Under the pieces are notes generated by a model that was not told where the DNA came from, ran no database searches, and was given only the letters and a program-made list of their open reading frames with translations. This document shows positions 19,068-62,244 of a DNA stretch of 64,000 nt, one piece after another. Numbering within the stretch: the stretch's first letter is position 1; every line of letters begins with the position of its first letter. Made by a program: the position numbers and the translations under genes. The stretch comes from Fistulifera solaris. Taxonomy: Eukaryota. The stretch spans positions 62,001-126,000 of the forward strand of contig AP026151.1 in the NCBI GenBank assembly GCA_030295235.1. The letters are read 5' to 3'.

Positions 19068-22000
19068 TTAATCGGAGTCGCTGTCGGAACTATCGTCGTC
19101 CGCGGTTGCAGCAGTCTTCTTTGCAGCTGGCGCCGACTTCGAAGGAGGTGATGATGCTGCTGCCGCTTTCTCTTTGGCGGCCTTGGCTTTCTTGGAAGCA
19201 CTTTCCAAAGCAGCACGTTCGGCCTTGGCTTCCGCCTCGCATTCAAGTGCCAGAATAACGACATCCTCCACCAGCTGAGCATCTCTGGATTTGTCTTGAA
19301 TGGCTCCAACAATTTGGGCCATGGTCTTCTGATACGCTAGACGAGCTTCTGCTTCCGCTAAGTAGTAAGCCTGGCGCGTTTTCAAGTCGTCTTTCAATTT
19401 CTCAAGCTGTGCCTTGTATGCTTCGACATTCTTGATCAGTTTCGCGTTGGTGGCATTTAACTGTTTAGCGTGATCGTTCAGAGCCTGGAATGATTGACCA
19501 GCTGAGGCATTGGCTTCCATGAGTCTTTGGTTATTCTCTTTCAACGCCTTGAAATCCTTTCGCATTGTGTCGTTTTGATTACGAAGCTTCTGATTTTCAC
19601 GACGCAAGTACTCGATAATCTTTCCACTCTCTTCGATCAACGACTGTTGCTGAGCGGCCTTCTTCTGCTTATCCTTATCGTTTGCCAGCTCCTCCTTAAT
19701 CTTCTTTCGGTACTCTTCCATTTCTTTCTCAGCTGCTTCGCGTGCATCTTGGACCTCTTTCATTCGCTTCATTTCGGCTTCGTGAACCGCGCTTTCGAGA
19801 GATTTGATCTTGTTCTTCAAAGCATCCTTTTCTCTCTGTGCCTTCAGCATCTCCTTGAATTTTGGACGCCACAAGAAAGTACGCACGTGCGCTTGGATTT
19901 TAATGGCGGCCTTAAGTTGCTTCTTCGCCTTCTTCTTGGCTCCTTTCTTTGCTTTTCTTCTCCTGTTAAGCTCTTTTCTGGCCATGTAGCATCGCCACGC
20001 ACACTGAATTGGAATGGCCAACTTGCCTCGAGACTGCATTTTCCTGCCTTGCGTTTTTCTTACGCACGAGCCAACCTCGTGACGTACGCTGCAAGTCCAA
20101 TGCCCACTGTTCCCAAGCTTCCATGCGCTTTCCCTCCAAAAATTCGAGGGCGCCCGTCTTGAAGTAAGCGCGCGTCTTACCGACAACAAAAGCCGGCTTT
20201 CCTGTTTCGTCCTGAAGTGGCGTCAACGCGGCCGTCAAAAGCTTAGTAACTTCATCTTTGTAGTCGACTTTGGACTTGTCTTTCTTATTCCCTTTCGTTT
20301 TATTGATGACCTTGAAACGCTCGACGCATGCTCGATGATCAAGTCGATTTGGGAAGGCGGAACGTGAAATCGTTACGGCTGCCACCACACCTGCACATCG
20401 AAGCTGTTCAACGGTTGTCATGTGGTACATGATATTGGGCTTCTTGATAGGATTTGGCTTGATGCATCGAATGTAACGTGATTGTGTCTCGTTGAGCTGC
20501 TTCATCAACGATGTCAACTGATTCTTGAACTTGTTCCACAGAGTGTCAGAAGCCATGTTACTTTTGCCGCGTTTAGGGCCAGCACGAACGGCAGCAGCAT
20601 CACCGTTTCCATCGTCTTTCGTCATACTATCGTTTTGCATATGGTTAGCAATGATGTCGTTGCTCGACTGCTTGGCGATCTCGATCAAGTCGGGAGCGAT
20701 AGTGTCTTGATTCACCTGCAAGAAACCATTGGCATGGTAAACAACCTTGCCAGCGTAGTGATGAATACCAAAGTCAAGCGGTCCGAGAAGTCGATCTTGG
20801 ACAAGACATGGGGATGTTTTGTTCGTATTACAAGCCTTGTAAACGAACTCTTTGTCACTACCCTTGGGTCGAACACATTCTTCGTTGAGCATGGCCAATA
20901 AACCGGTGCGGCCTTCAATTAGATCAAGCACGTCACTATTGTCGTCGTAAAGAATGTCATCCAAAGCAATGCCTTCGAATTTGTATTCCTCCTGAACCGC
21001 CTTGAAGATATCTTTCGTGAACTTTTGCTGCAGTTTCTCGTTCGCGTAGTTGATGGCCAACTGTTCGAACCCGTTTACAGGAAACGATTCGAAACCGAAA
21101 ATATCCAAAAGACCAATGGTGCAGAAATCAGATTTGCGCGCGCCCTTGTAGTTCTTTTCCGCCATAGTCGCATCGTTGATTTCTCGAACAAGCCAAAGGA
21201 AAATCTTGGAATAAATTTCTTTTCCAAAAGCTTCGCACGAGTCTTTGGCGGCATCGGGCTTCAAGGGAACTTTGAAGACTTCACCACGCGCGTTCATGGT
21301 TCGTTCCACCAAAGCCTTTTCAAGCTCGGTGGGGTTAATACCGATAAGCTCCGCGAGACTGTCGAACTCCGATTTGCTCGTCACACACGATTTCTCCGTA
21401 TCTCCTCCCGGCGGTCCGAATGTAATGTTTCCTAGTTGGAGCACACATGCGATAGCCCTCCACAGTGTCATTAATGAATCGCCTGTAACACCGACTTTGG
21501 CCAGACCTTCCACGGTTTCGTAGAAGTGATCACCATCACTCTTCCCTTCAATCGAGGTAGTGTCCGTATGACCGATAACTTTGAACGAGGCATTGGTAGT
21601 CCCCTTGAGTCCTTTCCAAATCTTTACCTTGTCGGCTTCCTTAGCGGCAATCATTTGGTAAAAGATGTGGTATGTTCGTTCGGACTCGTCGTGTGTCATG
21701 ATACGACTCTTTTCGAGAAGGTAAACCTCGCATTTACTTCCCGCGATTTTGCAGTGCGGGACGCGCTGACCTGGCGCAACATTCGCGTCACGATCGAACT
21801 GCAACATGATGTATTTTCCGAAACGCGAGGAGTTGTCGTTACGACGGGTCTTGGCGTTACCGAAGGCCTCCAAAAGAGGGTTGGACTCGACGACACGCTT
21901 GACGACCTCGTTGAGACCATCGCCCCCTTTCTCGCCCGTGGGTCCTTTTTGAACGGAGGCCATGTGGTTCATACAGATCTTGACAGTTTCCGTCTTACCA

Positions 22001-43902: not shown

Positions 43903-45511
43903 CTAAGGTCGCGATGCGTTCTGTCGCGCGACGCGAATACACCCTTGAATGTTGAGAAACCAACAAATAATTTGATTCCATGGATTTCCACCGCTAGGAC
44001 ACGGACAGTCCTTCTCCGACACATTATCGATTGGTCGACAGCCTACTTGCGATTGTGTCCCTAGACCAGCCCAGGTATAAACCGCATCAAACATATCTTT
44101 GCTCATGACTGGGCCGACATTGGCTCCACCAGATCCCCCGGCGTGATTTCCCAATGCTATATTTTCTTTAGTCAACAATGCACTCCCGGACATGCCTCCC
44201 GCAGTATCGCAGTAATATCGCAGGTAATGCGCACCATTTGAGCGAGCTGAGAAAAAGATTAAAAAAATAAAATCTGGTTAGTCGGAGAGCTCATCCAAAA
44301 GATTTTTAAGGCAGCTGCACTTACCAGGTGGAGAGCATGGCCCGGAAGTCGTCATTTCACCTCGTCTAAAGTCGTATGGGTATCCGGTGATTGTAATATC
44401 GGCTATTCGAGGGTCAATGACACCGTTAGATGAGCTAACGATACTATCGATTGCAACGTAGCCCACAATATCCCCTGGCTTTGTTGGGAGAGAAATAATA
44501 GAGTTAGACGATGTCGAGATTCGCAACATATCTGTAAGGATCAAATGAAGAGATACGTACGTAAACTTCATCACAGCCCAAATCCGGTCGACTGATTGGC
44601 TTGTATGTGACCACCGCCATATCAAAATATCTGTTTCGCGTCTCTCTATACTCTCCAAAAGCCGTAGCATAATCCACCTCCCACATTCCGAATGGTTCGA
44701 GATGTTGATTAGACTCCGAGTCAAAGTACCGCCCCGGCGCTATCCGGGTGATGGGCATAGGTCTTCCTTCGTTGTAATTCCATACACAGTGCGCCGCCGT
44801 TAAAGCAGAAGTCCGTGAAATCATGGTTGCGGTGCACGAGTTGTTGCCCCACCTATAGTCGCTAGCACCAATGGCTCGAAAAGGGTAGAGAGTCGTATCG
44901 GGGACGGCTGAGCGTGTATCGTTCCCTATGATAATCAGGTTTCGGTTTTTGACAATAAACTCGTATCCATCCGCAAGACCTTTGTATAATGTGGTGGGTC
45001 CCAAAGTTTCGTTGAGTAAGGAATAGCGCGACGCATATTCATAGCCGTCGCTGGTAATCCGAACGTAATGCCGATCGATGCCCGTCTCCTCCACTTCGTA
45101 TTCGTCATCGAAAGCAGACATATTCTCCAAATTCTCTATCTTTTTGGCGTATCGTGTACGCTTTGTAACGAATCGAAACTCTTCATCGGCAAATCGGGTA
45201 ATAGTAGCTTCATCGATGACTTCCGAGTTCATGACAAAAGCCGATTCTTCCAAGAGACTTTCGCAAGGCCCCAGACTATCCAATTCGATGCCCTAAAAGC
45301 CGATGAGTAAGACGAAAAGGTGTGAAAGGCGAACTTCTGCTCGTGAACCTACCTGACACCAGGCCAAACATTCATTTGCGTACGTTAATCCGTCAGATCC
45401 GCAGACGGCCGGTCCCATTACAAGGGCGTCCAAACTACAACCGGCACTACAATTGTAGTCGGCTCGAGCGAGTGTGAATGAAGCGGCGAGTAATGACCCA
45501 ATTCGAATCAT
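43903..45511 (-). CDS. Kazal + glutamyl-endopeptidase-like S1 serine protease, copy A
   Basis: Four exons; introns 45293-45352, 44479-44560, 44247-44324. VCGSDGLTYANEC; RNL-IIIGNDTR; TAAHC, DMAV, CDTAGGMSGS. Confidence 0.9.
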
Positions 45512-46436: not shown

Positions 46437-48077
46437 CTACACCCTCGCTTGAAGGGACGCCAAACACGTTGCAAGGTTGCGGATCCAGCAACGAACGCGA
46501 CTTCTTCGATTGTTGGTGTATTGCGCGCAAGGACAGGAGGTGGGTCGCAACTGGCAATTGAGTGGTTCTTGATTGGCTAGTCCGGCAGTTTGATAAACAA
46601 AATCAAAGTTGATTCGGCTGAACATCACCGCACCATTGGAACTACCAAACCCCATATTGTGAACGCCTAAAATTTGATTTTTGAGTCGAAAGCACTGCAG
46701 ATCCGCTGCTCCCTCCTTCTGTATCACAGTAGTGGAGAATGTAGTTGGGACCATAGCTTTGAGCTTTGAAAAGTAACAAAGAACGTAAGCGAAAACAGCA
46801 GAGCGAGCTAAAAGCGAAGCGATGCTGTACGTACGGGGAGCCGAGCAAAGACCCGAAGTGACCATCTGTTGATTGAAATCGTAAGGATAACCCGTTAAAG
46901 TCATGGTTTGTAATCGCGTATCGGTTACTGATGTATCGGTTCCTGCAACTAGGTCAATGCCCAGGTAGCCGACAATGTCACCCGGCTGTCGTATCAACGA
47001 AAGATACAGTGGAAAAAGCGTCCAAGTGAGAAGAGGCGTTCCATTTAGTCATCCATCACTTGTGCTCAGGAGCAATTGATACTTACGTAAACCTGGGTAT
47101 TGTCACGGCAGGTATAACGTGTGTCGGTGCGCGGCTTGAAAGTAACGACGGCGAGATCCGCCGTCCTGGTCCTGCCATCGATGTATTCTTGCTTCACGGT
47201 GACGTAGTCGACGTCCCAGGTGCCAAACGGTTCCGCAGTGTTGTCGGCCTGCGTAGGATCGATGTAACGAGCCGGTGCTATCCGTGTCATGGGTCTCCAG
47301 CTCCTGGTACTATAATTGTAGGTACAGTGCCCTGCTGTGAGAGCCGATCGGCGCGAGATCATGGTTCCTGTGCATGACGATGGTTGGATGAGATCCAATG
47401 CTCCAATGGTGCGATAGGGAAAAACTGTAGTGTTTGTTATCACAGAGCGAGTGTCATCCCCGATGACGTCCAATGCCCTGTGTCGAAGATTGGTTGAAGT
47501 TTCTTGTGCAATACCCTGATATGGCTGAGTTGATGTCACCTTCGTAGGGGTGCTCGCCTTGGAAATAAATTTGTAGCCCTCGTGAGTCAAACGCACAAGA
47601 ATCTCTGTGGCGGGTACTTGAAGGGGAGAAAAGATATTGGACTCGTCCTCTTCCGATCCTTCTTCTATGATCGGTTCTGTCGAAAATTCGATTTCCTTTG
47701 TAACGAAACGAAAGTTTTCTTTCGCAAACCGATTCATTATTGCACGCGTAATAACTTCCGCGTTTCCAGAGAAATCAGGCATTGTTAATCTATCGGCATC
47801 TCCCGAGCACGGTCCAGAGGTAAATTTTTTGATGCCCTGAAGTTGACGACACGAGTGTTAGGACCGCTAACGACCGCATAGCCGTCACGAGACCACTTAC
47901 TTGACACGAGGCAACGCACCCGTTTACATAAGTAAGCAGGTCTTCGCCACACACTGGACCTCCCATAATAGCAGTATCCAAAGAGCATCCAGCATCGCAG
48001 TTGTATTGTGCAGCAACGCTGGCAAAACAAGAAGCGACGATAAGATATGATGCAATTATGTTCGAGAGTTTCAACAT
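46437..48077 (-). CDS. Kazal + glutamyl-endopeptidase-like S1 serine protease, copy B
   Basis: Introns 47837-47900, 46986-47086, 46764-46834. RAL-DVIGDDTR; TAGHC, DLAV, CDTEGGSSGS. One A-run frameshift at ~46680. Confidence 0.88.
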
Positions 48078-49003: not shown

Positions 49004-50593
49004 CTAACGGGCCAAACAAGCACCAAAGTTGCGTAGATTACATAGCAGTCGTGCAATTCTTCTGCTGCCGAACTCTGAACATGTGCAAGTTTGGGGCGCT
49101 TGACTCGTTAGCCCAGCCCAACTGGAAACAATGTCGAAATATTCGGGAGTCAGAACCGTGGCTCCATTGATTGTGCCTGATTGTGTTATCGGATTGTTAT
49201 GCGCTCCATTGTGGACGCCCAACACTATGTTGTCACTCGTCAAAGTTACGGCGCCACTCATCCCGGGTGTCGTGTCACTTTAGAGGTTTCATAGGAACGG
49301 CAGTTGTGCTTTAATGAGAAGCCAGAAATAATCAAAGCTGTTTGGTCGAACCACCACTCCTCACTTACCATGTGTGATAGATATACTTTGGCTTGGTGGA
49401 AAATGCTGCGATAAGAACGAGTCAAAGTCTGAGTAACTTGGAAAATGACCAAGTAATGATGAATACCCTCTCAAAACTTACGTGCAGTGGAACAGAGGCC
49501 TGTTGTGATCATCTTATGTTTCATATCGTATGGGTATCCTGTGATGGTCATGGTCGAGAATCGCGCATCGGTGACGTTTGCATTATCTTCCCCTACACGG
49601 TCAATGGACAAGTATCCGACAAAATCCCCAGGATAGACCGAAAAAATACCCAGAAAACGTCTCCTTCGCTTCTTGAACGTAACCACTCCCATGTCATAAA
49701 TTTCATCGCCTGATTCCTCATATCCCTTAAAGTAATTTGTGTAGTCGACGTCCCAAGTCCCAAAGGGTTCCGTGGTGTTATCACTCTGCTCAGGATTATA
49801 ATAACGACCTGGTGCGAACCGAATAACGTCATAAGGCTTTTTGGCCGCTCTATCGTAAAGGCAATGCGCCGCGGTGATACCAGAGGTCGGACTAATCATG
49901 GTAATCGTGCACCCAGATTCCGAGAAATCGAAATCTAAGCCTCCCATGGTCCGATAGGGAAAGATCGTCGAGTCCGGAACCATCGTCCTCGTGTCTTCTC
50001 CAACCACCACTAATTTTCGCTTGCGAAGACCCGGTTGATTCTCCGCAATACGGCCCTCGTAAGAAGGCGTGGGGCCCTGGATTTTGGCAAATGACTTGAC
50101 TTGGGAAATGAATTTGTATCCCTCACTGGTGACGCGTACGGTATCGAATCCATCCGGCGATAGAGACGATGAAAAGACATTCGAGTTGTGTACGAAATCG
50201 CGAATTGGATTTCTTGAAAAATCGATCTCTTTTGTGACGAATCGGAAACTTTCTTTCGCAAATCGACTCATAATTTCTCGCGTAATTACTTCGGTTTGAC
50301 CCGTAAGGTCCATCTGCTCAACGCGGTCTCCTTCACCCCCACAAGAGCCCGCAGTAAATTTGATGCCCTACACGAACGCGTTAGTACTCGCACGGAAGAA
50401 GCCATGTAACGGCAATGACACTTACTTGACAAAGCGCGAGACATCCGTTGGCGTAACTGATTCCATCGGCTCCGCAAACAGGTTGCCCCATGACGGTTGG
50501 ATCGAGACTGCAACCCGCATCGCAATTGTATTGTGCCGCTGCACGAGCGATCGCAAGGAGGAGAAGAAGTAAAGCGTTCCACATGTTGCGCAT
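49004..50593 (-). CDS. Kazal + glutamyl-endopeptidase-like S1 serine protease, copy C
   Basis: Introns 50368-50425, 49406-49481, 49278-49368 (37-nt exon between the last two). RKL-VVVGEDTR; TAAHC, DMGV, CDTTPGMSGA. Confidence 0.88.
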
Positions 50594-52165: not shown

Positions 52166-53792
52166 TCAAATTCGGTTCGCGCTTTCCAGTGCCAGCCGCA
52201 AACAACCTCGAAAGTTTATAAACCAACAAATTGCTCGCTGTGACGGATTGGTTTGTGATGAACAGGGACACGCGTTTGATGCTGAGCATACGAATGCCCG
52301 TTGGTCTGCTAGTCCTGCCCAAGTATATACGGAATCAAAGAGTTGGTCCTTTAGAACAGCACCTCCATTGCGACTGGATACCCAATTTCCATGAGCATGG
52401 ACACCGACAGCAACATTGTTCGGGAGTAAGAAGCTACTTCCGCTCATCCCCGCAACCGTATCGCAAAAATGCCAAATATAGTGTGAACCGCCTGACAATG
52501 CTATCATATAATATGAAAGGATGAGCGTCATATATTCCGACATTATCTCGCATCTTGTCGCTAGCTTCCCACTTACCTTCGCGAGAACACGCGTTAGAGG
52601 TGACCATCTTTCCAAAATAGTCGTTCGGATAGCCAGTAACAGTGAGAGAGGCCAAGCGCGGATCATTCACGGCAGAACTTGTTCCTAAGACTCGATCGAT
52701 TCCAACAAATCCAACGACGTCGCCCGGCTTTTACCAGGAAGACAGAGCCAAATTGAGGCGACAGCACTTCATTGAATTGCGAAAGCACAGAGATATACTT
52801 ACGTAGACGTTGGAGCAACCGAGATCGGGGCGATTGGATGGCTTAAACGTGACGACAGCCATGTCAAACTGTTCGTCTTTTTCTTTGTAATTCTGGAATG
52901 TTGTCGTATAATCCACATCCCACGTTCCATAAGGATCTATCATACTACCAGTCGAAGCATCCACGTATCGTCCTGGAGCCACCTTCATCATCGGAAGCGG
53001 CTCGTTGGTGCTCGTTCGCCAAACACAATGACCGGCTGTTAACGCTGAAGTCCGAGAAATCATTGTAACTGTGCAGATGCTGGTCCCTTTGGTATAATTA
53101 TAGTCCGCGGAACCGATGGCACGAAAGGGAAAAGCGGTCGTATCTGGAACAATGCTACGAGTGTCTGTTCCGATGACAATTAAATTTCGATCACGAAGAA
53201 GCTTTCGGTCAACTTGACCAGCAAGACCCTCGTTCGCAGCACTGGAACCTGGAGTACCAGTTGATTGTGTGGATTCCAACGGAGCCATGAACTCGTAACC
53301 TTCGCTAGTAATACGCAAAAAGTGGGAACGAAGAGGGACGCCGAGACGATCCACCAAGTCGGATTCTACGACATCTTCGTAATCATCGAGCTGTGTAGCA
53401 AATTTGACTCGCTTTGTCACAAAACGAAAGCTCTCGTGCGCGAACCGATTCATCACATCCATTGTTATCACATCAGCACTTCCTGGAAAATCAAACCCAG
53501 ATAATCGGCTTTCATTCATTCCGTCACATGACCCGTAATTGAATTTAGTGACGCCCTGTACAACAGTCAGATCAACCAGTCGTTAGTCTCTTTGTCTGCT
53601 GCATCATGCAATGCAACACTTTTGTGCACTTACTTGACACCACGCCACACACGCATTTTGATAAGTAAAGCCCTCGTCGTCGCATACCGATGGACCCATT
53701 ATGCTTCCATCGAGAGAACATCCTACGTTACAATCATACTGCGACGCCACGCAGGTAAAGGACGACAGAATTAACACTAGTGTCTTTCGCAT
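52166..53792 (-). CDS. Kazal + glutamyl-endopeptidase-like S1 serine protease, copy D
   Basis: Introns 53556-53633, 52728-52802, 52501-52576. RNL-IVIGTDTR; TAGHC, DMAV, CDTVAGMSGS. Confidence 0.9.
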
Positions 53793-55002
53793 TTGTCTCT
53801 TCAGGATTTTTGAACGTTAAATGAAATCAATATAGACACAAAGTTGTTTCACCGATCGGCGGATGATAATGACGGCATTGTTGCGTACTGGTAGGGAATA
53901 AAGGTCTTTGCTTCCGCTTTTGAGACGTCGGCGCGGGCCGAAAATTTCTATTTATTGGTGACACGTCTTAAATACCCAAAATTACGAAATACAAAAGTGT
54001 TGAGTTATTTCGTTCGCGGTTCATCAACTTGTTTCCCAATTAAATTGTTCTGTGAAAATTGTGGACAGTATACTTTTTATTGTAGTCAATGTCCTTATTT
54101 ACTTTATTTATCTTTGTCGTCCGTCGTCCTGTCGTCCATCATCCATCATCCGTCATCCGTCATCCGCATTGAACATGGAGGATGGAGGGAGAATTTGACG
54201 TGCACCTTCCAATCCCAACGGAAATCTATCGGATGTCGTTCTAGAGCGGAGAACGAATGAAAGTCCACCATCATTGGTGGAGAAATTTTCAGGAACTGCA
54301 ATCCACTAGGGTGGCGTCCGTCATCAATCAGACAGCAAACATTTGAAAGACGAGAACGTTGCTTGCCGATTACAACGTCTAGATCGGCAAATGCACTTCT
54401 CTCGTGGCGAACTGCGCATTTTCCGATGATGACGGCAATAACAACAGAATCTAATCTCTAGAGAATCATAGACAAAAAGTCGAGTTCCACCTTCCTTGGG
54501 ATCGCATTTACCTCTCTGTGAGCCTTTATGAGAAAAATATTTCGTGAGAGGGAGAATCGAATCAAGTTTATTGGACGAACACACCAATGATAGTCGAAAG
54601 GTCTTTTCGCAAATTTAAGGAGAACAAAAGATACAGCTAAAATGATGTTGGTGGACCTTCACTTGTGTTTTTCTTCTTAAACATAAGGTATCACTTGCGA
54701 AGATGATGGCAACGAGGGCGACAACCATCGAGCATTCATAAAAGGTGCAGAAAATGCCCTTCAACGCAGTGGAAGTCGATGTAACAATTGAAATCAGTTG
54801 CTGTTATCTAAAATGTGCAAGTAGGTAAATGCTACTGAGAAGAGTTTAGGCTTTCCAGTTTAACTTTTTTTGATTGCGATGCGAGGTGGTAGGCATCTCT
54901 CGGGTAAGCTACTGGTCAATAGATATCCATGAAGTGAAAACACTTACCAGTATCGTTTGTGCGATAAAACGACACAAAAGTATCTTAGTTCGCAGATTAT
55001 TT

Positions 55003-57189
55003 TTACATCAGTCGTCTCTTCTTGCCACCTTTCCCACTTGAGCTTTTCTTGGAGCTACTACTATACTTTTTCTGTTTCTTCTTTTTGCCGCCCTTGCCTT
55101 TACCGGAATACGGTTGTGATACCGGAGCTGCGACTGGATTTGTCGGATTCCTGACAGGTTGGGTCGGAAGAATATCCGCAGTCGGCCCAACAAAAGTGGG
55201 TGATGTCACGGGGCTGCCGACGGGCAATGCTTGAGGCACTGTTGCAGGCGGCACAACGGGTCTCGGAACGGGGATGATCTCAGGCACGGGAGCAGGTAGA
55301 GCAACGGGAATGGCGACGGGCGCCGCCTGAGGCACTGGTGCGGGAGGCACAACGGGTCTGGGAACGGGCACGATCTCTGACACAGGAGGAGGAAGCAGAA
55401 CCGGGCTAGGAACGGGCACGATCTGAGGAACCGGAGCCGGGAGCACAATGGGGCTGATGACTTTCACTGGCTGGGCCACTGGAGCGGGCTGTGGCGCTGC
55501 GACTGGTAGAACGATAGGGCTGATGACTTTCACTGGCTGAGACACTGGAGCGGGTTCTGTTTCACGTGTTGGACCAGTAACCTGCGAAGGGGTTGGCGCC
55601 TGCAGAACAATTGGAGACAGTCCTGGTGAAGGTTGTCTTTGCGGAGCTGATACAGGTTTTTTGAACCGGAGGGGCAACTGGTTGTACAACCGGTGATAAT
55701 ACCTCAGTTCGAGAACACAAGCTTTGACCTTTCCCATGTCCAGCCCATTCATAGATAGATGCATACAAGCGAGTCGTCATCATCACAGCCCCATTCATGC
55801 TTGTTGTTGCGGTCTGAACTCCATGGGTATGAACTCCTAAAGCGATGTTTCCCTCCACGATGACACTAGATCCGGAATTTCCTCCGACGGTGTCACAGTA
55901 GTGATTTATATAGTTAGCCCTGCGACTTTCAGGAGCTAGAATGGAAATCGGAGGGTGTTTTTGTGAGTTTGTGGCGACAAGGAATAATTATAGTACATAG
56001 AGTTAGCGTTATTCGACTTACCTCGATCGCACGGACCGGAGGTCGCCATTTGTCGATTATAGTCGTACGGATAGCCGGTGATCACCATCGTGTTCAAGCG
56101 GCTATCCACAACTCGTCCATCCACTTCAGCCGGACGATCAAGTCCGATATGGCCTAAAGCGTCTCCGGGCTAAGATAGAAAGAGAGTCTGAGTGAGAGAG
56201 TGGTTTTGGACGTCCTTTGATAATCCAGAGGTACTTACGTATAGCTCCTTACAGGTAGAAAGATTGTTGCGGATACGTGGTTTATAGGTCACAACCGCAA
56301 TGTCGAAATTAGTTTGTCCAAGCTGCTGAAAGTTCCCAAACAACGAAACGTAATCCACTTCCCACGTTCCAAAGGGTTCCGCCGTCCCGTCTCTCTTTGT
56401 TGCATCACGAAATCTTGCCGGAGCAATCGCAGTCATATTCATAGGCCCCTTCCTGTTCGTATTCCAGACACAATGTCCTGCCGTCAGTGCCGAGGTTCGG
56501 CTGATGAGCGTTAGAGTACAGCCTCCTTCTCCCCACCAATAATCAGCATTAGCTATAGTACGGAACGGGTAACGAGTTGTATCCGCAACGGGAACTCTCG
56601 AGTCTTGTCCGATCAAGACCAACTCTCTACGAGTCGCATTGCCCTCGCCGTCGTCATCCAGTCCGTTTTCGCCTAAAAGCCCTAGTTGCGGCGCTACTGG
56701 CTGGAGGAGCGACTCCTCTTCAAACATCAATGTCGTTCGATACTCGTATCCTTCGGGCGTGAATCGATAATTGGGAATAAACTGGTCATCCATTTCCTCC
56801 AGGAAACCATCGTCCGTTTCATTGATCATTTGCTCCTCGAGCAGGTAGCGGATATCTTCTTCGAAATTAGTCGATGGTAGACGCTTTCCAACGAAACGAT
56901 AATCCGAAAAACGTGTCATGGTACTCATGGGAATAACTTGCGGATCCGACGAGACGAAGGACTCTTGGAAAGGATCTTCTCCTTCGCAGACACCCAAACT
57001 AGCAACGGTAATGTTTTGACATACCGCCAAACATTCGTTTAGATACGTGAGATTGTCATCTCCACACACTGGAGGTCCCATAAGGCTAGCATCCAAGCTG
57101 CAGCCGACGTTGCAATCATATGTTGTCTGTGACGCAACGATCGAAAGAACAGAGGCCAACGCCACGAGATGTAGGAGAGCTTCTTTCAT
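55003..57189 (-). CDS. Kazal + glutamyl-endopeptidase-like protease, copy E, with Pro/Val-rich stalk and Lys/Ser/Gly tail
   Basis: ATG 57189; introns 56170-56238 and 55936-56021. REL-VLIGQDSR; TAGHC, DIAV, CDTVGGNSGS. An A-run frameshift at ~55657-55662 enters ORF 55003-55764. Confidence 0.85.
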
Positions 57190-57672
57190 GATGCTCTTCA
57201 CTGGAATTCTGATTGTTCTTTTGCGTCTTTGCTTTTCTTGATGGTTGCTTTGGTTTATGTCTGTATTGTTGGAAATTGCTGACACTTCTTTCGAACGATC
57301 GGAGAAAGCATTTTCGAAAATGTGGACTTGAAATCTTTCTTTCGCACCGCCTAACGCTCCAAATTCTCGCCTCCATAAATGTGTATCCTATCAATTCAGT
57401 ACAAGTTAATCAGCATTTAGGAGATTTCCTTCAACCGCGAATATTCTTTTACGCAGTTAGCGATAAGCGTCTTCCGTTGTGTACCGCATGAGACATTTGT
57501 CTGTCCGTTGGCTCGATGGGAGGGTGAAAAAGCTCCGCCAAGGCGCCAAGGCTCGTCCGCCGTCGCGCGTGTGCACGAAAAGAACAACAACAACAACACG
57601 CAGCGACGAAAGGGCAACAATCCTTGGCAATCGTCCCATTCTTTAATTCTTCTTTCTATTATCGAGACTATA

Positions 57673-59138
57673 ATGCCTTTAAAAATCTTTCTGTCGATCT
57701 ATAGGCATTCAATTGTACTGCTTGTCTTCTTTCTGGCGCTCTCCAGCAGTCAATCTTCATCTTCTTATGACTGTGAAAACGAGGGATGCCCATGGACTGT
57801 TGCTCCTCCTGTTTGCGGTGTGAACGGCGTAACCTATGCAAATGAGTGTTTAGCTTTTGCCAAGTGAGTAGTTCCGCTTCCTTCACTAAGCCTGTCATGA
57901 TGCTCTTGCTGTATCGTGTGGAGGATGCTTTGTCATCGAAACAAGGATTTGCAGTTTTTTCTTTCTCTGCCCGTACTTAATCTTACTTCTTTTCCTCGCA
58001 GAATATACCAATTGCTTCCATCGGCCCTTGTTCCGGCGATGGCGATATTGCTTCTATTCCTTATGACGATGGCACGAATGCGACTATATCAATCATGCAG
58101 CGGTTTCGTAACGAGAATTTTATGCTGACAGGAAGAAGGAATCTAGATGATCTCGCACTTCCAGAAAACAATCCAACGTTTCATTTAGAGGAGCGAAAAG
58201 ACGATTCGATTCTCGAACAACAACCCTTGTTGTGGAGTCGTTTTACGTCAGATGGTTATGTCTATACGGCGGTTGTGACAGACGAGGATAACAGACGATT
58301 CTTACAAGAGTTGCAAAACATTTACGAGTCACGTAGCAATCGCTCCTTGATTGTCATAGGTCCTGACACACGAAAGGTTGTCACCGACAACCAGGATCGC
58401 TTGCCTTACTCTCCCATTGTTGAACTAGACTACGGGTTTGGGAATTCAGAGGGTGGATGTACTGGGACATTAATTGGGAAAAGTTCGGTTCTCACGGCGG
58501 CCCATTGTTTGTACAATTTCGTGGAGAAACAATTCACTAATCCCTTACGCATGGCTCCTGGTCGGTATCGTCAAGGAACCAATACAATTGAGCCTCACGG
58601 ACTCTTCGGCTTTCGCTATTCGACCTTTTTCACTACGTATCAATCGACAGGAGACGCACGCTACGATATGGGCGTCGCTACGTACAATGCAAACAGCCAA
58701 GGCAAATTTCCAGGTCAACTCGCAGGTACGCTTTGCTTGGCAGAAGCCGCGACACAAAAGCTTACGGCAGAAACTATTTTAGCTGGCTATCCGATGGATT
58801 TTCTTGACGGAAATCTAGCGGAATCTCGGGGTTGCAAGTGGAGTCTTGAGACTGGGATCATTTCACATGACTGTGATACAACAGGTGGACAATCCGGGGC
58901 CCCTATCGTCTCCTCGATGTCCGAAATGCTGGGAATTCACATCGGATATAATCCCAATACTTTTATCAACATTGCGCTCGGTTGGAACAATGCTACTTAC
59001 AGTTCGGTGTATGCATGGGCTCCCGATGCCAGGAGTTGTCCGGATCGAAGATTTTGTAGCAACTGCCCTGCCCTCGAGGGTCCTTTGAGGCGTACACTGT
59101 GTTCTCTGGTGTGCCTCTTGTTCGGTAATGCGGAATGA
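57673..59138 (+). CDS. Kazal + glutamyl-endopeptidase-like S1 serine protease, copy F (most divergent)
   Basis: Kazal exon needs one extra T at 57855-57858 to read AFCQ; intron 57864-58001. RSL-IVIGPDTR; CTGTLIG..VLTAAHC, DMGV, CDTTGGQSGAP. Confidence 0.88.
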
Positions 59139-60785: not shown

Positions 60786-62244
60786 GGGGACCTACGGATG
60801 TCCCCACTCATGACGATACGTGATCTGTCCTCCCATCGGTTATTTCTGTCCGTCCCACCGTCCGTACGCGCCAGCAGGACCATGAAACCGTTAACAACAG
60901 TACACAAAAAAGCACTGTTCTATCTTCATAGGTTTACCGCGAGAGTCATTCCAAGTCGGAGAACTCAAATTCTTTCGCATTATCGTATGTGGCAACTTTA
61001 TTAATCGTTCCTTTTCGCGAAAAATATGATGCAACACCCAACTTTCAATTCGACAAACAAAGTTAAGTATGTTTGAAGATCTTTCGATGGATCGCAAGTT
61101 TCGAAAACGACATCACAAAGCGGAAAACAGCGGTGGCAGACGTTCCTTCACGGTCGTTTAGACTGACTCTGGATGATTTATCTACAAAGTCATGTAATTC
61201 TGATCACCGTAAAGTCTAAACAATCACTTTTTCCCTTTCAATTTGGTCCTTTCCCAAGGAAGGACTCGTCGTTTACTAAGATAATTTTATTGAGAAATTA
61301 GCGTTCGTGACCGGACTCGTCCTTTACGTAGGGAAGATGTAGGGAAAATTTATTGAGAAAACCAGCGTTCGTGACCGGACTCGTCCTTTACGAAGGGAAA
61401 ATGTAGGGAAAAGTAATTGAGAAAACTAGCGTTCGTGACCGGACTCGTCCGTTACGAAGGGAAAATGTAGGGAAAATTAATTGAGAAATTAGCGTTCGTG
61501 ACCGGACTCGTCCTTTACGAAGGGTAAATAATGATTAAGGACGTATAAAAATGTAGGGAAAGTTTATTGAGAAAACTAGACTACTTGTACGTACATCGAA
61601 AAATAGTGAGAGAAGTAACTTTCGTTGTTGGATTCCTTAGAGTTTGGTCTCGTTACCGAAGCGAATATTGTTGCAAGCATCTCCTATAACAATTAAATAA
61701 CAATATCACTTTCATGAAGAAACGAGACTAATCCTCATCAACTTATTGCAACGAAATTATGTCGCTATATAAACTATTCTTTATTACCTCGCTCGCCTTG
61801 TTTCGTCGTCGGCAAGCCCGATTTGTTGCGCTTGACTGGGACGGCTTCCTAAAAGTACCAAGATTGATTTGGACTTTGAGATAAAGGCACATCGTAATTT
61901 GCGGTGTAATTAATTGAACGACTGACTACTCTTTTTTCGTTTTCGACGATGACAGAAATTGTGACATCATCTGGTAGCTTCATTGCTGCTTCAATATATG
62001 CTGGAACCGTTGCTTTTGGACTCTGATTAATTCCTTTTCGTGTTGCCCATACCGTCACGTTGGGCGGAGCATTGTCTCCGACTTCGCAAAAAAAAAAAGA
62101 TGTGTGCTATTGCACGGTGTGAAGGGAGAGCCGTTGAGAGGCCGGCTGGCGTGGCCGGCAGGCGTTTGCTTATTCGCTTTCGAGTTACACGTGGAAGTGA
62201 CGTCATGGGGGTATCGTCATGAGTGGGGACATCCGTAGGTCCCC
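60786..62244. mobile_element. Non-autonomous TIR DNA transposon (1459 bp) with 34-bp perfect TIRs and flanking TA
   Basis: 60786-60819 GGGGACCTACGGATGTCCCCACTCATGACGATAC is the exact reverse complement of 62211-62244; TA at 60784-60785 and 62245-62246; no recognisable transposase. Confidence 0.85.
61262..61579. repeat. ~64-bp tandem repeat (4 copies plus partials) inside the TIR element
   Basis: gcgttcgtgaccggactcgtcc at 61301, 61365, 61429 and 61492. Confidence 0.95.

Follow-up and report, generated by a model that had tools for sequence, protein, structure and literature searches.

A protease gene of the diatom Fistulifera solaris with an in-frame lysine-rich tail and a possible link to biosilica

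Published descriptions of silica-associated proteins in diatoms turn on the spacing of lysines. A pentalysine cluster (K..K..K.{1,2}K..K) is present in 29% of silica-associated proteins and in 1.5% of the background (preprint 10.1101/2021.09.18.460806), and a region that holds two or more K..K motifs, spaced by at most 10 residues, can confer a degree of silica targeting (Poulsen 2013, via the same preprint). The lysine-enriched region of cingulins is defined by a minimum of two K(S/G)2K motifs separated by at most four residues (PMC9650480), and a screen for silaffin-like proteins combined a signal peptide with repeated KXXK motifs (X being S or G) that have 1–6 residues between them (PMC5501833). 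In the silaffin peptide R5, the motifs SKKS and RRIL are reported to drive phosphate-bridged assembly (PMC12051205), and mature silaffins are described as having lost their RRIL/RRNL ends (PMC4557024). Proteases are part of the same picture: the serine proteases TpSSP7 and TpSSP35 are members of the silica-associated proteomes of Thalassiosira pseudonana (preprint 10.1101/2021.09.18.460806), and secreted proteases, including the trypsin-like Tp9434, are co-expressed with silaffin genes (PMC5501833). Here we describe copy E, a gene of the diatom Fistulifera solaris that encodes a serine protease followed by a Pro/Val-rich spacer and a tail rich in Lys, Ser and Gly. It lies in a window of 64,000 nucleotides, positions 62,001–126,000 of contig AP026151.1 (assembly GCA_030295235.1), and window coordinates are used throughout.

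Copy E is an expressed, intact gene with its tail in frame. Four public runs (X1–X4) contain the locus, and their contigs were aligned to positions 54900–57300 of the window (2401 bases). Together with the public protein they give the following gene model.

55003–57189, minus strand: whole gene, copy E (FisN_9Hh367), 676 residues in three exons, from spliced contigs and the public protein
56239–57189, minus strand: exon 1, with the ATG at 57189
56170–56238, minus strand: intron 1, 69 nucleotides, GT..AG, joint 56169 to 56239 in X2 and X3
56022–56169, minus strand: exon 2
55936–56021, minus strand: intron 2, 86 nucleotides, GT..AG, joint 55935 to 56022 in X2 and X3
55003–55935, minus strand: exon 3, including the stop codon TAA at 55003–55005
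55657–55662, minus strand: run of A's, six in the window, where alone the extra base breaks the frame, and five in four of four runs

The joint of intron 1 is carried by one contig each in X2 and X3, with a shorter side of 148 letters, and that of intron 2 has a shorter side of 148 letters in X2 and 18 in X3; the intron ends read CT..AC on the plus strand. Because their contigs skip both introns, X2 and X3 are RNA. X1 retains both introns in one contig (55420–56434) and so behaves like DNA, and the contigs of X4 show no splice joint, which leaves its RNA nature unproven. With five A's the frame reads ...PPVQK/PVSAPQ... and yields a coding sequence of 2028 nucleotides and 676 residues, identical to a deposited Fistulifera solaris protein (FisN_9Hh367, here P0024) that NCBI names "hypothetical protein". 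The bases that encode the tail (55006–55110) are covered by contigs of X2, X3 and X4 with zero differences.

The protein divides into the following parts.

57130–57189, minus strand: predicted signal peptide, residues 1–20, MKEALLHLVALASVLSIVAS, read from the sequence, with a helix at residues 2–15 in the structural model
56983–57120, minus strand: Kazal-like domain, residues 24–69, six Cys; borderline in Pfam, with a PDB match and a model
56620–56628, minus strand: R-E-L, residues 188–190, directly before the predicted mature N-terminus VLIGQDSR, from the 1p3c alignment and relatives
55715–56619, minus strand: V8-like (S1B) serine protease domain, residues 191–440, with both introns inside, from Pfam, PDB and Foldseek
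55111–55705, minus strand: Pro/Val-rich spacer ("stalk"), residues 444–641, 198 residues, from composition and disorder in the model
55208–55543, minus strand: in-frame tandem repeats in the spacer, a 48/96-nucleotide array at 55208–55447 and a 66-nucleotide duplication at 55412–55543
55006–55110, minus strand: polycationic tail, residues 642–676, YSGKGKGGKKKKQKKYSSSSKKSSSGKGGKKRRLM, from translation and the contigs of X2, X3 and X4
55009–55017, minus strand: terminal R-R-L, residues 673–675, followed by Met and the stop codon

Copy E encodes a zymogen of secretory type, whose S1B protease has the His-Asp-Ser triad in full. On the whole protein, Pfam reports Trypsin at 30 bits (cutoff 20.6), and Trypsin_2, at 25.9 bits, falls below its cutoff of 27.6. 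The closest solved sequence is 1p3c, the glutamyl endopeptidase of Bacillus intermedius (expect value (E) 2.6e-11), which is also the top Foldseek match (E 8.8e-15, template modelling (TM) score of 0.87 on the target), followed by exfoliative toxins and the V8, Esp and Spl proteases. The triad residues H239 (in TAGHC), D296 and S387 (in GNSGS) align with those of 1p3c and are conserved in 36, 38 and 34 of 38 relatives, respectively, and the predicted local distance difference test (pLDDT) value of the model is about 84–97 over residues 190–440. The label "V8-like Glu-specific endopeptidase" is a database label on relatives only. At the N-terminus we infer that the hydrophobic segment of residues 1–20 is a signal peptide. 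The Kazal-like domain that follows scores 21.2 bits for Kazal_1 (cutoff 21) and 22.7 for Kazal_2 (cutoff 22.8) when the exon-1 piece is searched, and both families fall under their cutoffs with the full 676-residue protein. It matches the leech tryptase inhibitor LDTI in PDB (2kmo, E 9.4e-4), is modelled at a pLDDT of about 90–97, and keeps each of its Cys in 26–32 of the 38 aligned relatives, the remainder being mostly gaps. Residues 70–190 form an acidic pro-region with a disordered closing loop (170–189, pLDDT <50), then R-E-L.

The predicted activation site is a property of the family at large. Residue 191 of copy E aligns to residue 1 of mature 1p3c, and R-x-L stands at exactly P3–P1 in 62 of the 104 relatives in which the motif of the mature N-terminus could be recognised (R at P3 in 76, L at P1 in 64; background 0.0048 R.L per residue). 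The consensus of 38 sequences at the junction reads RxLxVIGxDTR. R-x-L is thus family-wide and not peculiar to the tailed copy E. A freed N-terminus is required for the activity of S1B proteases. In biosilica-associated proteins, R-x-L ends the removable pro-region of many members, for which the protease is called "yet unknown" (PMC5525289), and it has also been put forward as a site of general endopeptidase cleavage in diatoms (PMC4557024). As read from its translation, copy E carries two hallmarks of wall proteins, a putative R-x-L pro-region and a Lys/Ser/Gly cluster, and the predicted family-wide activation site provides a concrete handle on the missing protease of biosilica-protein processing. 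A bolder proposal, which we hold to be a long shot, is that the diatom Kazal-S1B proteases would be part of the R-x-L processing system of biosilica proteins, either as the self-activating endopeptidase or as its dedicated substrates, and that copy E, by way of its tail, would enter the silica deposition vesicle together with silaffin-type cargo and end up entombed in the silica or tethered to it.

The protease domain is followed by a long, disordered extension. The first-pass annotation of this DNA, made from the letters alone, had described a Pro-rich PV/PAP stalk after the catalytic domain, and the stalk is there: it spans 198 residues with 30% P and 20% V, and the repeats that had been quoted, QPVKVISPIVLP and PVPRPVVPPA, occur twice each. 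The model gives the spacer no secondary structure; across residues 441–676 the mean pLDDT of 10-residue blocks is 39–56, most residues from 470 onward have a pLDDT <50, and so does the tail. No Pfam family was found in the spacer (residues 459–641 scanned) or in the tail. The further suggestion that the stalk is glycosylated found no footing, with only 23 S and T in its 198 residues and no usable N-x-S/T sequon by eye.

The tail is a real and unusual feature of the translated protein, because it is the Lys-rich extreme of the window and its density of K..K motifs recurs in none of the other proteins compared. Its 35 residues comprise 13 K, 8 S, 7 G, 2 Y and 2 R with no D or E, which makes 15 basic residues, and end in RRLM. 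Translation of the window in six frames gives 1058 stop-to-stop open reading frames (ORFs) of at least 35 residues, 76,457 residues in all, and in these no other 35-residue stretch is as rich in Lys and no other unites K with S and G. K..K motifs start at residues 647, 650, 652, 653 and 668, four of them inside 7 residues; four starts within 12 residues occur in 0 of the 165 other proteins compared, which are mostly relatives. An RR[ILVM] motif in the last five residues arose in 1 of 5000 shuffles of the tail. The silaffin-R5-like lysine peptide that had been reported at the C-terminus after the stalk therefore exists in frame, with SKKS and a terminal RRL.

We consider a silica-targeting role for the tail plausible from its sequence, and our tentative overall reading, to which we give a little less than an even chance, is that copy E is a wall- or silica-anchored protease, held by a tail of silaffin or cingulin type. 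The likeness to silaffins claimed earlier stood in part. The tail has two K..K motifs within 10 residues of each other, and its segment KSSSGK then KGGK (residues 663–671) fits a wider K(X)nK pattern. SKKS and the terminal RR-L are suggestive as ordered details of R5 type, and only suggestive because they were picked post hoc. The host is a diatom, which we count in favour. The R5 string quoted in the first-pass annotation is found in the published literature, and a local alignment places the last 17 residues of the tail over all 19 of R5 with 11 identities and a score of 46, compared with 34.3 ± 4.9 for shuffles; 106 of 5000 shuffles reach 46.

A number of results weigh against a silica anchor. 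The strict pentalysine expression has zero matches in the 676 residues of copy E. KGGK occurs at residues 647 and 668 only, 17 residues apart, which is outside the cingulin definition, and the tail also falls outside the spacing of the KXXK screen (PMC5501833). The loose K..K rule is unspecific, because 20 of the 165 other proteins compared satisfy it as well. The likeness to R5 is mainly compositional, since 106 of 5000 shuffles score as high, and the best number of ungapped identities to R5 was reached by 519 of 5000. Half of the tail lysines sit in the run KKKKQKK, whereas the regions described in PMC9650480 have regular K-(S/G)2-4-K spacing, and the richest 100-residue segment of copy E holds 11% S and 10% K. 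The relatives speak the same way: copy E alone of seven paralogues in the window has the Pro-rich spacer and the Lys-rich tail, and a K/S/G tail, which the first-pass annotation had proposed to look for in orthologues, is found in none of the best 150 of 911 relatives. A search with the tail piece (217 residues) against proteins of near length scored 8000 candidates and gave no match at E <= 0.01, a weak negative because the piece is of low complexity. The nearest gene elsewhere, encoding a 347-residue protein (P0002) with 93% identity to copy E over exon 1, has a mis-annotated model that reads into intron 1 and stops, so that its C-terminus is unreadable. Finally, runs X1–X4 all come from a single study, and one of them is possibly the assembled sample.

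The strict expression found one match elsewhere in the window. A Lys/Ala-rich stretch at 19854–19958 on the minus strand, with 12 K in 35 residues, holds KAKKGAKKKAKK, the sole strict pentalysine match in the window, and adjoins an IQ-like segment. Because this unrelated basic Lys/Ala-rich stretch matches, the strict pentalysine expression is not specific either.

The tail might instead be a general polyanion anchor that acts outside silica: it might bind extracellular polysaccharides with sulfate or carboxyl groups, in mucilage or the organic casing, or else foreign surfaces, for example those of bacteria. We regard this as unlikely, though it deserves serious weight. Fifteen basic and no acidic residues are what such an anchor would have, the KKKKQKK run is unlike published targeting regions, and the strict silica-targeting definitions leave the tail out. 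A carbohydrate-binding Ricin-B lectin at the same position in one relative (P0048), and weakly in another (P0062), suggests a family that is tethered to extracellular matrices. Set against this, Ser, Gly and Tyr are interspersed among the Lys, and SKKS and the terminal RRL are in the style of silaffins and cingulins rather than of a plain polybasic patch; the loose K..K rule for silica targeting also includes the tail.

Copy E belongs to a local gene family. Seven paralogues that combine a Kazal-like domain with a V8-like protease lie within 20 kilobases (43993–63998), and the others are 30–42% identical to copy E.

about 43993–45511, minus strand: paralogue
about 46581–48038, minus strand: paralogue
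about 49453–50530, minus strand: paralogue
about 52235–53780, minus strand: paralogue
about 57718–59096, plus strand: paralogue
about 62745 to the window end (63998), plus strand: paralogue

Two deposited proteins map to these genes: P0007 (FisN_9Hh368) matches at 100% over residues 355–465 (the portion with at least 90% identity) in copy D, and the last copy encodes residues 1–433 of P0005 at 100% identity, as far as the window end. Both, and P0010 from another contig, end about 40–50 residues past the protease domain with a Cys-containing segment. In the 1.2 kilobases that separate copy D from the 3' end of copy E there is an imperfect short tandem of CATCC/GTCATCC type at 54110–54170 (plus strand). 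The P0002 gene, on another contig (72,766 nucleotides), may be the homeologue of copy E, judging by its similarity; a metagenome scan with P0002 gave two weak unrelated loci (L001 and L002, 48% identity over 29 residues).

Beyond the window, phmmer with the 676-residue protein returned 911 matches at E <= 1e-3, a search of longer proteins with the exon-1 query returned only P0024 and one unrelated protein of 1071 residues, and an ESM Atlas search with residues 630–676 gave no usable match. The longer relatives carry other C-terminal modules in place of the spacer and tail. Besides the Ricin-B lectins already mentioned, these are Hint modules in four proteins (P0038, P0067, P0071, P0088), a PPC domain in P0118, Pro/Thr-rich stalks in P0045 and P0031, and a Cys- and basic-rich knot in P0063; a Pro/Thr/Ser-rich stalk plus a further domain is also among the fusions. 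Going by these predicted architectures, the addition of a localisation or processing module at the C-terminus is a habit of the Kazal-S1B family. Because the family appends such modules, an anchoring role for the copy E extension is reasonable, and the pattern leaves the ligand unspecified. Two side observations concern these relatives. The four protease-Hint fusions would be self-processing, and P0087, a protein of 1042 residues with 13 Kazal-like stretches, has a Lys/Gly-rich end with KKGGKK and KAKGGKK that is faintly like the tail of copy E.

The same comparison bears on another explanation, in which the spacer and tail arose lately as low-complexity sequence with little or no function of their own, or are cleaved off at R-x-L or dibasic sites before the protease does its work. 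Their absence from the six window paralogues and the best 150 of 911 relatives would fit a recent origin, as would their construction from recent in-frame tandem duplications and A/G-rich DNA, and the disorder throughout and the KK, RR and RRL sites in the tail would fit removal. Yet the extension is a transcribed open frame of 233 codons (residues 444–676) without stops, every repeat period in its DNA (48/96 and 66 nucleotides) is a multiple of three, and C-terminal modules are a regular, functional theme among the relatives. We find this explanation distinctly unlikely.

The two remaining alternatives concern the reading frame. As the window stands, the catalytic frame hits a stop at 55562, and the Pro-rich/Lys-rich frame is a stop-to-stop ORF at 55003–55776, offset +1 from the catalytic one. 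The first-pass annotation had attributed this to a frameshift in the A-run at 55657–55662, had named reads or complementary DNA as the check, and had stated that reads confirming the stop at 55562 would leave the tail untranslated. The frameshift lies exactly where it was placed. Contig alignment omits one letter at 55657 in four of four runs, and the depth with the omission equals the total depth in each (16/16 in X1, 23.8/23.8 in X2, 6.3/6.3 in X3 and 4.6/4.6 in X4); it is the sole indel or substitution reported over 54900–57300. When P0024 is mapped on the window, its frame switches within 55658–55662. DNA-like and spliced RNA contigs alike join the catalytic and Pro-rich frames, and one X2 contig, spliced at both introns, is colinear across 55459–55935. 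Because all four runs carry five A's and the public protein reads through, the extra A is an error of the window assembly that belongs to neither the DNA nor the messenger RNA of the organism, a result that rests on the runs of one study and not on independent strains. A true frameshift, with the protein ending at 55562 and the tail untranslated, has the six A's of the window itself in its favour; with five A's at full depth in the DNA-like X1 and in the RNA runs, and a deposited protein that reads through, it is very improbable. There is even less room for a 103-nucleotide intron at 55600–55702 (minus strand) that would join the frames, for despite its GT..AG ends, pyrimidine-rich acceptor, length of 3k+1 and size near that of the two real introns, the stretch is a decoy, because the RNA contigs run through it and no run has a joint (none occurs anywhere in the spacer or tail in the contigs of X1–X4), and the public protein includes the residues it encodes. 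We rejected it as a candidate: the X2 contig is spliced at introns 1 and 2 yet unspliced over 55459–55935.

Returning to a protease anchored at the wall or in silica, we propose the following course of events. Once the protein is in the secretory pathway, its pro-region would be cut past R-x-L (here R-E-L), which would expose the N-terminal Val on which S1B enzymes depend. The tail would act as an electrostatic anchor, its Lys clusters lying on negatively charged silica or on an acidic organic coat; its Lys and Ser are perhaps modified as in silaffins, and its RRLM end is perhaps trimmed. The spacer would serve as a flexible tether that holds the catalytic domain tens of nanometres off the wall, and the outcome would be a naturally wall-immobilised protease.

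The protein was already public, named only "hypothetical protein FisN_9Hh367", and a literature search found no mention of this locus tag. Across titles and the starts of abstracts, the search found no diatom protease with a silaffin-like tail and no diatom Kazal-S1B fusion. What appears to be new here is a Lys-cluster peptide of wall-targeting type attached to an enzyme, and this novelty would fall if TpSSP7 or TpSSP35 carried similar tails. Even if the tail does not target silica, an apparent frameshift has been resolved as an assembly error and a "hypothetical protein" has gained a domain-level annotation. If it does, copy E would be nature's own case of an enzyme fixed to biosilica by a silaffin-type peptide, the design that has been built by hand with R5 and Sil3 fusions, and a defined protease would be placed at the diatom wall, where silaffins, cingulins and silicanins are proteolytically processed. 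A test of silica targeting is feasible, because F. solaris is transformable and wall proteins have been localised in it with green fluorescent protein (PMC4712521).

Among known systems, the protease part of copy E is closest to the bacterial S1B glutamyl endopeptidases (1p3c, Staphylococcus V8, Esp), with which it has the fold, the triad and GNSGS in common, and in the alignment its predicted mature N-terminus, V-x-I-G-x-D-x-R, begins opposite residue 1 of mature 1p3c. In contrast to the bacterial enzymes, copy E is eukaryotic and adds a Kazal-like pro-domain, an R-x-L site and a C-terminal spacer and tail. Its pro-region also differs from that of the wall protein Sin1, which has about 30 residues (PMC5525289), compared with 170 in copy E, including a folded Kazal-like domain. 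TpSSP7, TpSSP35 and Tp9434 are secreted serine proteases tied to biosilica by proteomics or co-expression, and they are likened to copy E by their description in these sources, not by sequence.

The tail, for its part, resembles the R5 unit of silaffin-1A from Sil1p of Cylindrotheca fusiformis in being a polycation rich in Lys, Ser, Gly and Tyr that forms part of a diatom protein of secretory type. SKKS is found in the two alike, and each ends in RR-(I/L) and a hydrophobic residue; maturation of Sil1p takes off its RRIL/RRNL ends (PMC4557024). The tail occurs once, at the end of an enzyme, whereas R5 belongs to a repeat array in a structural precursor. The pentalysine clusters of tpSil3 and the lysine-enriched regions of cingulins in Thalassiosira pseudonana likewise set K..K clusters with S and G in proteins that have a signal peptide. 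These two systems are from T. pseudonana, and the host here, F. solaris, is a raphid pennate. The engineered fusions of silaffins or R5 with enzymes (PMC9650480, PMC11818168) are man-made for immobilisation on silica and, like copy E, join an enzyme and a Lys-rich peptide in one chain; the peptide in those fusions is a silica-binding one.

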